From a virus (Duplodnaviria; Heunggongvirae; Uroviricota; Caudoviricetes), in the IMG/VR virus record IMGVR_UViG_2541047899_000008: DNA of 8,515 bases. The stretch is one strand, 5' to 3'. Position numbers: made by a program. Below are positions 3,001 through 6,000 of this stretch, piece after piece; within the stretch, counting starts at the first letter, position 1; every line of letters starts with the position of its first letter.

Positions 3001-6000
3001 CTCCTAAGCAGGGCGGGGCAACCGTATCTGGTGACTATATTTATCTGGCCACCCCACAAGTAGAAAATGGGCCTTGTGTATCATCTTTTATTATATCAGG
3101 AGCGACGGCGGCGACCCGCGCAAGCGATATAGTTACAGTTCCAATTAAGAATAATCTTTATAATCTTCCTTTTACGGTTCTTTGTGAGGTACATAAGAAC
3201 TGGTATAAAACGCCAAATGCAGCGCCACGTGTTTTTGATACCGGCGGTCATCAAACCGGAGCGGCTATTATTCTTGGCTTCGGTCGTTCAACAGATTACG
3301 ACGGATTTCCTTATTGCGATATTGGAGGAGCTAACAGACGGGTAAACGAAAACGCATCGCTTGAAAAAATGGTTATGGGGATGCGTGTAAAGTCAGAGCA
3401 GTCTACGTGCTCAGTAAGTAACGGGCATATATCCAGCGAAACAAAAACCACATGGTCCTGTATTCAGAACACCGCAATTATCCGTATTGGAGGCCAGACT
3501 ACAGCCGGGTTACGTCATTTATTTGGTCATGTCAGGAATTTCAGAATATGGCACAAGGCATTGACTGATGCTCAGGTGGGGGAGTCAATCTAATGAAAGA
3601 TTTAACACTCAAATTTGCAGACAGGGCCGACTTTTCGGCCTTTATGGAGAGCACTGGCTATTATGATGACGAGTCGATGCAGGATGATATTCTTATTGAC
3701 GTGATAGGTAACGTGTACAAAGAAACCGGAGAACTGACTGAAGATGGCGAACCGGTATGTGTTAAGGAAGACGGATATTTTGTAAACGTGCGCATCATTA
3801 ATGATGCAAAAAAATCGTCAATATTCGATAAATACGCGGTTGTTGTTGAGCATCAACTTCGTGGCTGGATGTGAGGGAGACAAATGGCTACATCGACAGT
3901 AATTCCAGGAGATATCACCAAGCTAAAGGGAGATGTCAGTAAAGCTAAGGAAGATATTTCATCAATTAGCGGAAAAGTATCAACGCTTCAGACTGATATG
4001 GACAGTGCAAAGCAGGATATCAGTACCAGATACACGAAAACTGAAGTGGATAATAAGCTGAAAAACAAAGTGGAAGTGAACGATCTGGAAAGCGGTCGTT
4101 ATGGCGGAGATTTTTATCCACTGACAGGTCGTGAAGCGTTTTATTTATGGAATTTGGCCACGACTACAGCTGCGGCAAACCTTTATCTTAATCCTGACCC
4201 CGCAATTTCGTCTGTGCTGCGGTCAACATCGTCTATCCGCTATAAACATTCAGTAGAGACGATAGATTCAGAGCACGCCGATCTCATTTTCAAGATGCGC
4301 CCTGTGTGGTACAGGTCGCAATGCGAAAATGACAGGCGCGATTGGGGATTCTATGGATTGATTGCCGAGGAAGTGGGAGAAATTGCCCCTCAGTTTGTAC
4401 ACTGGCGACCAGCTAACGAAGATGATGCACCGGAAACCATTTCCAGCAATGGCCTTGTTGCCGAAGGCGTAATGTACGAACGTCTGGTTGTTCCACTGAT
4501 TCACCATATCCAGAAGCTGACTGAAAGAGTTGATGAACTTGAGTCAGAATTAAAGTTGTTATTAACTTCCCGAAGCGATATTGGATAAAGGAGGAGTAAT
4601 GGATATAACACCTTTCCTTCACGCGCTGTGTGCTGTGGCTGCGCAGGTACTGGTTGGTCTTTTTACCGGGAACTGGGCTTACGGAGCGATAGCCGGTTGT
4701 ACGTTCTTCATTGCGCGTGAACATACCCAGGCAGAATATCGCTGGATTGAAATGTTCGGGCATGGCAAGCGGATTAACATGCCGTGGTGGGGCGGTTTTG
4801 ATCCACGTGCATGGGATATGGCAAGCATGATGGATTTTGCTGTGCCGGTGGTGGCGTGTCTGCTGGTCTGGCTGTTGGTTAATCGCTAAAGTCATCATAT
4901 CAGGGGAACACAGCAGGGGCTGGTTTTACATAAAAAAGCCCACCAGTGAGGTGGGCAACAGGAATGATTAATTATCTCAAAGAGAAACATCATGTTTCTC
5001 TTTGCAACTTCTAACATGAAAATGTGGAGAAATAATGGAGTTTATATTAACTGGTGATTATGCAACCAACTTCTTATGCAAAACAATATAGTTATTTATA
5101 CCTGACTGGTCTTATGCATACACCTAAATAGGTGTATTACGTAATGAAACAGACTGGCGAATATGTTTGAGCAAACTCCACTGAACCGCAGACGTTATGG
5201 TCATGTTGCATAGTGTTTTGGAATATAAAGAATTATATATGAGTTCGCTGTTTGTAACCTGAAAAACAATAACGAATGTTATAATAAACTTGTTTGTTGT
5301 GCTGCTTTCACATTTTCTCATTAATCTTACCAGTAATATTTTTGTTGCTTTGTTGTTTCTGTTTTTTTATAAAAAAGAGGTGGTGCAGAGGAGGAAATAT
5401 AGTGGATAAAAAACTAATTGCATTTTTGTGCACACTTATAATTACTGGTTGCTCGGATGGGATCGGTGATTCACCTTCGCCACCGGGAAAGAATGTAGAA
5501 TTAGTCGGAATTCCAGGGCAAGGTGTCGCTGTTGCTTCAAATGGCACATCTCCAACACTTGGGAGCAATAGTACTGACTTTCCTGATGTTTCAATAATGA
5601 GCACAGGGGGAGCGATGCTTACTGTTTGGGCCAGACCTGTCCGTAACTGGCTTTGGGGATATACTCCGTTTGATTCAGTAAGTTTTGGAGAGAATCGGAA
5701 CTGGAAGGTTGTGGATGGCAAAGATGCCGGTACAGTGAAATTTGTTAATGTTGCCCAGGGGACTTGCATGGAGGCCTTTAAAAACGGGGTGATACATAAT
5801 ATCTGTGATGATAATTCGTTATCTCAGGAGTTTCAGTTACTGCCTTCTACTAATGGTAATGTGCTTATAAGAAGTAGTGCCTTGCAGACGTGTATAAGAG
5901 CAGACTATTTAAGCAGAACTATACTGTCACCGTTTGCTTTTACAATCACCCTTGAGAAATGCCCTGGTGCAAAAGAAGAAACGCAAGAAATGCTATGGGC

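Follow-up and report, generated by a model that had tools for sequence, protein, structure and literature searches.

Quasi-palindromes are hotspots of template-switch mutation, as set out in the Ripley model and studied with thyA and lacZ reporters in E. coli. Specialised-transducing joints, such as those made by aberrant excision in lambda bio and lambda gal, and the boundaries of 'moron' cargo are a second kind of described system; lambda bio carries bio after the last late-region gene. The palindrome described here stands behind the late genes of an E. coli prophage and is most likely an intergenic inverted repeat at a prophage mosaic joint, a known kind of feature. Like the quasi-palindrome hotspots, it appears to be an imperfect inverted repeat that was perfected by an A-to-G change at position 4994, and all four arm differences between the phage and the chromosome raise complementarity in the phage allele. 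Unlike them, the only change that could be polarised is a single transition, and no multi-base templated event is demonstrated. The likeness to lambda bio and to 'moron' boundaries lies in the layout: chromosomal DNA from upstream of yagU, with 17 codons of that gene, comes directly after the last late-region gene, the cargo follows in the window, and an intrinsic terminator marks the boundary. The differences are that no recognisable att core is present here, that the captured gene is a 17-codon stump with a toxin operon beyond it, and that the event is deduced from homology only.

The window, the whole stretch of 8,515 nucleotides that was analysed, contains cdtABC preceded by the tail end of a lambdoid (Rac-like) prophage (Table 1). 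Its sequence matches that of E. coli strain 3-72 at 100% identity, and the gene after cdtC differs between strains. The palindrome reads CAAAGAGAAACAT-C-ATGTTTCTCTTTG. Its arms (4978–4990 and 4992–5004) are 13 nt long each and 100% complementary, with the single spacer base C at 4991, and the 27-bp repeat with matched arms around one base described in the sequence-only reading is present as reported. The drop in GC content seen in that reading was also confirmed, with values of 0.52 for positions 4651–4950 and 0.34 for positions 4951–5250. A first-order Markov simulation and an analytic estimate, counting perfect palindromes with 13-bp arms and a spacer of at most 12, both gave an expectation of about 0.002 per 8.5-kb window, or about one comparable palindrome per 4–5 Mb E. 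coli genome. The palindrome is therefore unlikely by chance for a window of this size, though about one per genome is expected and this one was picked for its perfection. We found no paper that prints its sequence.

Table 1. Coordinates of the palindrome and of neighbouring features in the window.
Feature	Position	Strand	Remarks
Last gene of the lambdoid late/tail region, putative small membrane protein (phrog_1443)	4599..4889	+	
Fossil block	4753..5211	+	79–81% identical to the thrW / integrase-remnant / yagU locus of B2-type E. coli
Small ORF, 40 aa	5017-4895	-	crosses the palindrome; not conserved between alleles
Leftward intrinsic terminator	4932..4956 (hairpin 4956-4938)	-	GCCCACC-UCACU-GGUGGGC, then U6
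A/U-rich linker between palindrome and terminator	4957..4977 (21 nt)	-	
Palindrome, allele A	4978..5004	none	27-bp perfect
Small ORF, 21 aa	starts at 4992	+	crosses the palindrome; not conserved between alleles
Part common with K-12-type paoA-yagU intergenic regions	4999..5211	+	77% identity
Upstream region common to the window and EPEC phage cdtI	5083..5401	+	84% identity
Remnant of yagU codons 2-18	5160..5210	+	NMFEQTPLNRRRYGHVA, then stop
cdtA	5402-6115	+	
cdtB	6112-6933	+	
cdtC	6930-7502	+	
cdtA + cdtB + cdtC	5402..7502	+	

The DNA around the palindrome has a chromosomal counterpart. A block of 459 bp (4753–5211) matches a locus found in about 1,300 of the 5,426 complete E. coli genomes, which are phylogroup-B2-like and include NU14, CFT073, ST131 and ATCC 11775. 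From thrW (or the vat island), this B2-type locus runs through an integrase remnant, the final ~135 bp of the phage membrane-protein gene, the leftward terminator, the position of the palindrome and the yagU upstream region to yagU itself. In the window, the block extends from the 3′ end of the last phage gene across the terminator, the palindrome and the yagU upstream region into 17 codons of yagU, whose start codon was lost to a 7-nt deletion. The homologies, alleles, breakpoints and counts given here are direct observations. Across the 5,426 E. coli genomes the block occurs in two contexts only, cdt prophages and yagU loci. None of 50,697 phage records and no true plasmid contains it, and a scan of species-representative genomes of other taxa returned chance matches only. 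The left segment (4886–4992) likewise has no other source, being confined in E. coli to cdt prophages and yagU loci and found in no phage or plasmid. Since the block is found only in these two settings, the palindrome is part of an inherited fossil, in which the right end of a prophage is fused to the yagU upstream region. In sequenced lambdoid phages such as phage 21, homology to the window stops at about 4885, with other cargo beyond. We found no paper that links yagU with cdt.

These homologies qualify the earlier placement of the palindrome exactly at the boundary between phage and cdt genes. It does lie roughly near this boundary, but the last phage gene ends 89 nt upstream at 4889, cdtA starts only at 5402, and the intervening fossil block is common with a chromosomal locus that has no cdt. 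Dispersed extragenic palindromes of the REP/BIME or ERIC type have many copies, and this repeat occurs in only 1–2 places per genome, always in the same two contexts; the cdt-type segment occupies one place per genome, or at most two when the yagU copy is included. Two small open reading frames that run through the palindrome (Table 1) were rejected as an explanation, as in the chromosomal allele they are truncated or have no start codon when the sequences are read by eye.

A second type of yagU locus locates a breakpoint inside the palindrome. In 3,577 genomes with a K-12-type locus, in which paoA is divergent from yagU, homology to the block is found from position 4999 onward only, so that the outer six bases of the right arm, TCTTTG, form the start of the pao-type homology. 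A right-anchored alignment test of homology to the left of 4999, into the centre of the palindrome, was not significant against shuffles, and the palindrome is absent from all 3,577 pao-type loci. Because pao-type homology begins only at 4999, the palindrome straddles a prophage/chromosome breakpoint that is older than, and distinct from, the joint of cdt acquisition. The breakpoint in the right arm appears from these alignments to be the older joint, between the end of a lambdoid prophage and the yagU upstream region, so that sequence from the prophage side adjoins sequence that all yagU loci have. The suggestion of a recombination scar thus stands in so far as the palindrome coincides with a breakpoint, but the scar does not stem from the acquisition of cdt, as cdt-specific DNA begins only after 5211. 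The old joint may have formed as a site-specific attR or through an illegitimate deletion. Over their outer 6 bp, the arms match across the breakpoint, and such a match would arise with a chance of about 1 in 4,096 if it were unselected and untemplated; this observation sits uneasily with a repeat that has no role.

Alleles were surveyed across complete genomes, IMG/VR and metagenome contigs, and only few exist. Allele A, as in the window, forms 13/13 pairs and belongs to cdt-IV-type prophages. Allele B, found in the cdt-I ExPEC type (e.g. IHE3034), has A at 4994 and forms 12/13 pairs, as does a single-genome allele with C at 5003 in strain AH19B041. At the chromosomal yagU locus, allele C′ (CTGAGAGAAACAT-T-ACATTTCTCTTTG) forms 9/13 pairs and allele C (CTGAGAGAAACAT-T-ACATTTCTCCTTG) 8/13. 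One further, rarer chromosomal variant exists. Because A is present at 4994 in allele B and in all yagU-type alleles, which serve as the outgroup, G is derived at this position, and the perfect state goes back to one A-to-G transition in the cdt-IV sublineage. We examined this change for a quasi-palindrome template switch: it completes the repeat, but as one transition it is indistinguishable from ordinary mutation.

The phage and chromosomal lineages differ at 6 of the 27 palindrome bases, and their flanks differ at ~19–21%. The palindrome has diverged at the same rate as its flanks, and hence its sequence shows no extra conservation. Between alleles B and C, all four arm differences raise complementarity in B. 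These differences fit a near-perfect ancestor that would have decayed in a dead chromosomal stump; such a direction of change is supported at 5001, where T is found in alleles A, B and C′ and in the pao-type sequence of strain 1190. They equally fit a symmetry that would have been gained in the phage lineage, as by template-switch mutagenesis. At positions other than 4994 and 5001 the direction of change is inferred only; yagU homologues of other genera were considered as an outgroup, but they lie in different contexts and their upstream DNA is unalignable. If the ancestor was near-perfect, the chromosomal lineage would account for nearly all or all of the changes and the phage lineage for few or none, which hints at constraint or at a perfecting bias in phages and counts against a repeat without a role.

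The palindrome segment is present in 65 of the 75 complete genomes with a cdt-I/IV-type cdtA and absent from the other 10. Over positions 4957–5017, the 65 carriers divide into 15 with the exact sequence of the window and 50 that differ from it by one mismatch. At least one of these 50 mismatches lies outside the palindrome, so that the palindrome is perfect in at least 16 of the 65. The perfect form is a minority, and in about three quarters of the cdt prophages that carry the segment the repeat is imperfect, with at least 12/13 pairs in all 65. The EPEC phage cdtI is homologous to the window only from about 5083 and has the yagU stump without the palindrome. The repeat is thus absent from some other cdt prophages and present at loci without cdt. 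By the refuting condition that the sequence-only reading itself had set, the cdt-regulatory role which it had put forward is largely refuted. Among cdt prophages, the stretch 4921–5017 has 2 variable sites in 97 nt, compared with ~10–14% in its flanks. This low diversity was considered as a sign of selection and rejected as such, because 4.5% of equal-length windows in 4590–7560 are as quiet and the stretch falls among them; comparable quiet blocks lie inside cdtA and cdtB, and mosaic recombination could account for the pattern. The quiet stretch is nevertheless a point that a functionless repeat does not predict.

Our preferred reading, to which we give a probability of about one half, is that the palindrome is an inherited non-coding quasi-palindrome on an old joint between a prophage end and the yagU region, with no sequence-specific role today. 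We infer both the absence of a function and the following excision history. A lambdoid prophage would once have adjoined chromosomal yagU, its right end consisting of the last late gene, the leftward terminator and ~45 bp of AT-rich sequence, with the junction to the yagU upstream region at about 4999. On chromosomes of the B2 type, this prophage would have decayed to a stump of ~250 bp, in which the repeat drifted to 8–9/13 pairs. In the phage lineage, the joint would have been carried off along with the sequence upstream of yagU and 17 codons of the gene, as in specialised transduction, and cdtABC would have ended up downstream of it. There, the repeat probably stood at 12/13 pairs until the A-to-G change at 4994 made it perfect in the cdt-IV sublineage, a change of the kind that template-switch mutagenesis would favour. 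The only plausible present effect would be passive: the repeat would add another stem-loop 21 nt ahead of the leftward terminator (4956–4932), and might in this way help to end or to stabilise leftward RNA coming from the AT-rich cargo towards the tail genes.

A more active version of this effect is possible, though unlikely. Here, the minus-strand stem-loop would be functional, and the palindrome, the A/U-rich linker and the terminator would together serve as the 3′ module of a short RNA transcribed leftward, either sRNA-like or an insulator that keeps antisense transcription of the AT-rich cargo out of the tail genes. The palindrome is not itself a terminator. A terminator scan called none at the palindrome on either strand and called the neighbouring hairpin (4956–4938); the stem of the palindrome is followed by CAACUUCUAAC on the plus strand and AGAUAAUUAAUC on the minus strand, neither a U-tract, and 4 of its 13 pairs are G-C, all of which bears out the earlier judgement that it is no hairpin terminator. 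The neighbouring hairpin is predicted to act only on leftward transcription, as it is on the minus strand that its 7-bp GC stem with a loop of 5 nt is followed by a U6 tail. Its stem is the same in the cdt and yagU lineages, and the loop differs at 2 of 5 bases.

If transcribed, the palindrome is predicted to form a hairpin of about -14 kcal/mol, in which a stem of 12 bp closes a loop of 3 nt. For allele A the computed hairpin energies are -13.6 kcal/mol (plus strand) and -14.4 kcal/mol (minus strand). Several results favour RNA on the minus strand. A canonical terminator with its U6 tail lies 21 nt downstream on that strand, and the predicted fold of hairpin, linker and terminator, the arrangement of a structured sRNA with a U-tail, has a z-score of -5.1. 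Over seven distinct haplotypes, pairing is kept better on the minus than on the plus strand (92.5% vs 86.5% overall, 89% vs 81% in the palindrome helix), and allele B retains -12.5 kcal/mol on the minus strand but only -9.3 kcal/mol on the plus strand. The stem polymorphisms of cdt prophages, at 4950, 4994 and 5003, are all compatible with G-U pairing on the minus strand, which would fit a functional leftward RNA; this observation also counts against the preferred reading. The low diversity of 4921–5017 points the same way.

Against such an RNA, there is no sigma-70-like promoter to the right on the minus strand, where the best hand-picked candidate is weak. Compensatory changes number zero, the only changes being one-sided G-U changes, and the transition strand bias over all lineages (5 vs 2) is not significant. 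In about 1,235 chromosomal copies the hairpin is at chance level, with -3.8 kcal/mol on the plus strand and -7.0 kcal/mol on the minus strand for allele C (z-scores -0.2 and -1.0). In Rfam nothing reaches the gathering score, the best sub-threshold matches having ~20–24 bits, and a known RNA family or a tRNA remnant was rejected, as neither an Rfam nor a tRNA match was obtained. The region resembles the 3′ modules of Hfq-dependent sRNAs and lambda tI/sib in its order of stem-loop, A/U-rich linker, GC hairpin and U-tail on the leftward strand, and it resembles tI/sib in its position on the late-gene side of the att region. Unlike these, it has no promoter, covariation or Rfam match and is known from sequence alone, and unlike that of sib, the 12-bp stem is too short for an RNase III site.

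The sequence-only reading had also considered a recombinase core site, and it is doubtful that the palindrome is the fossil of one. It would be a hybrid attR of a tyrosine integrase, with a phage-derived left arm and a chromosome-derived right arm, read as 10-bp arms flanking the 7-bp overlap CATCATG; a 10+7+10 geometry resembles tyrosine-recombinase core sites. Like the lambda attP core, dif and loxP, the palindrome has inverted arms around a short centre, and it lies at a breakpoint in AT-rich surroundings. The homology breakpoint that separates prophage-remnant-type from pao-type loci falls inside the right arm, which makes it a junction of element and host DNA; a place after the last late-region gene is that of attR in a lambda-like prophage map, and an integrase remnant lies on the other side of the stump. 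Unlike in these core sites, the centre is symmetric, which would abolish directionality, and the breakpoint is off-centre, in the outer arm and not at the edge of the central overlap. No partner site or direct repeat was found at the locus or in the 50-kb prophage, the pao-type 'empty site' has no matching symmetry, and none of the 5,426 genomes holds an intact prophage at this joint. A cognate recombinase is also missing, as the integrase remnant close by comes from an element that integrates at thrW and has the thrW 3′ half in its attR. A thrW-type attR with this half is intact in IMG/VR locus L020; as a candidate for the DNA beside the palindrome it was rejected, because it is not present there.

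Parts of the last two readings recur in a further one, which we regard as rather improbable. The palindrome and the leftward terminator would form a small functional unit (~4921–5017) that is kept intact only in live cdt prophages, as a leftward sRNA or an insulator against antisense transcription, or the palindrome would be what can still be recognised of a hybrid att core, left by the excision through which the yagU-cdt region first came into lambdoid phages.

Pure coincidence, in which AT-rich sequence became symmetric by chance and unlinked to the breakpoint, is very unlikely: such a palindrome is indeed to be expected about once per genome, this one was selected for its perfection and the sister allele is unremarkable, but the expectation for a single window is low, at least 12/13 pairs are kept in all 65 carriers, and the repeat coincides with a breakpoint. 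An operator for a dimeric regulator of the cargo (cdt or yagU) or of a divergent promoter has less in its favour still, although the perfect 13-1-13 symmetry suits a dimer, the palindrome lies upstream of the yagU-derived region and cdtA and diversity is low among cdt prophages: the half-site AAAGAGAAACAT occurs with at most one mismatch only in the two arms throughout 50 kb of prophage including the immunity region; cdtA begins ~400 nt downstream of the palindrome, and the sole promoter-like site of yagU loci lies ~120 nt downstream of it; the palindrome is lacking in 66% of yagU loci, in phage cdtI and in the 10 cdt-I/IV genomes, imperfect in most carriers and reduced to 8/13 pairs in the chromosome; and it has no linked gene for a candidate regulator, different strains having different genes after cdtC. 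The search for further half-site copies proposed at the outset therefore found none at this threshold, and the window holds three matches with two mismatches, all on the minus strand (5353, 7949 and 8270). The promoter-like site of the yagU loci, TTTACA-16-AATACT, is degraded in the window, and no promoter-like site was called in 4500–5500 on either strand. Nor does the locus have the OL/OR-type set of sites and the adjoining promoter that go with lambdoid repressor/Cro-type operators.

The palindrome is of little importance in itself. It shows no sign of a dedicated function and is thus not worth pursuing as a regulator of cdt. The more informative by-product is the origin of the DNA upstream of cdtA. 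In cdt-I/IV prophages, EPEC phage cdtI among them, this DNA corresponds, as a diverged copy, to the chromosomal sequence upstream of yagU plus the first 17 codons of the gene; in ExPEC prophages it has remained connected to the joint between prophage end and chromosome. This points to a route by which the toxin operon may have entered lambdoid phages, namely the capture of chromosomal DNA flanking a prophage that lay beside yagU, and suggests that some of the sequence upstream of cdt originated as regulatory DNA of yagU.

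The strongest conservation across the cdt, B2-type and K-12-type yagU upstream regions falls at window 5007-5054 (CTTCTAACAT.AAAAT..GGAGAAAT.ATGG...). This segment contains a Shine-Dalgarno-like GGAG and an ATG that starts an ORF of 8-18 codons, whose product in the yagU loci reads MELI(L/F)IGD*; a leader peptide is one possible role, a regulatory block another. At window 5118-5137 there is another perfect palindrome, ATACACCT-AAAT-AGGTGTAT, with arms of 8 bp. The yagU loci retain it with one mismatch, downstream of the promoter-like site and ahead of the start codon of yagU, for which it may serve as an operator or as an element of the leader. 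Within the block that has its counterpart at the chromosomal thrW/yagU locus, variability peaks in both lineages in the 30 nt directly 3' of the phage gene stop codon (window 4890-4920), with 7 variable sites among the cdt prophages and 7 plus indels among the yagU loci.

Coordinates of features in and around the cdt prophage end
Feature	Window position	Strand	Remarks
Side tail fibre gene	1212-3593		
yagU-like upstream copy	4999-5211		codon remnant 5160-5210; also 4012-4135 in L002 (EPEC phage cdtI)
ORF, 249 aa	7766-8515	minus	past cdtC

Inside the side tail fibre gene, AT skew is very strong (~0.5) at window 1500-2250, and an internal repeat of ~250 bp is formed by 1752-2000 and 1941-2189. 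Together, skew and repeat point to a repetitive segment in the N-terminal region of the tail fibre.

On the other side of the toxin genes, a perfect inverted repeat (AAACCGCGGCACGTT / AACGTGCCGCGGTTT; window 7519-7557) with arms of 15 bp and a loop of 9 nt begins 17 nt 3' of the cdtC stop codon. Flanked by A-rich and T-rich runs, it is probably the terminator of the cdt operon. The 249-aa ORF, which was without a match in Pfam or PHROG, is followed on the minus strand by a leftward hairpin and T-run of its own (window 7739-7760). APEC O1 carries an alpha/beta hydrolase gene in place of this ORF, showing that the right flank of cdt is variable.

A further IMG/VR provirus locus holds, at positions 1-12562, an intact lambdoid prophage integrated in thrW, with the same tail module as the window. 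Directly against its attR, the 3' half of thrW, lie the older remnant of an integrase gene, the phage stump and the yagU block; thrW has thus been a repeated target of related phages.

Homologues of YagU (DUF1440) are unusually close in scattered taxa, at 91% in Klebsiella, 84-85% in Vibrio and 81% in Aeromonas, with others in Pasteurellaceae (60-83%) and Campylobacter (71-72%). The genomic context of yagU is not the same between genera, which suggests horizontal mobility of the gene. Several of the taxa with close YagU homologues also carry cdt. No connection between yagU and cdt was found in the literature searched.

In the cdt-I/IV prophages, the DNA upstream of cdtA is a diverged copy of the chromosomal yagU upstream region and yagU codons 2-18, at ~77-81% identity. 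A 13-nt deletion in this segment is common to EPEC phage cdtI and the cdt-I ExPEC type. This suggests that cdt came into lambdoid phages when the DNA next to a prophage beside yagU was captured.
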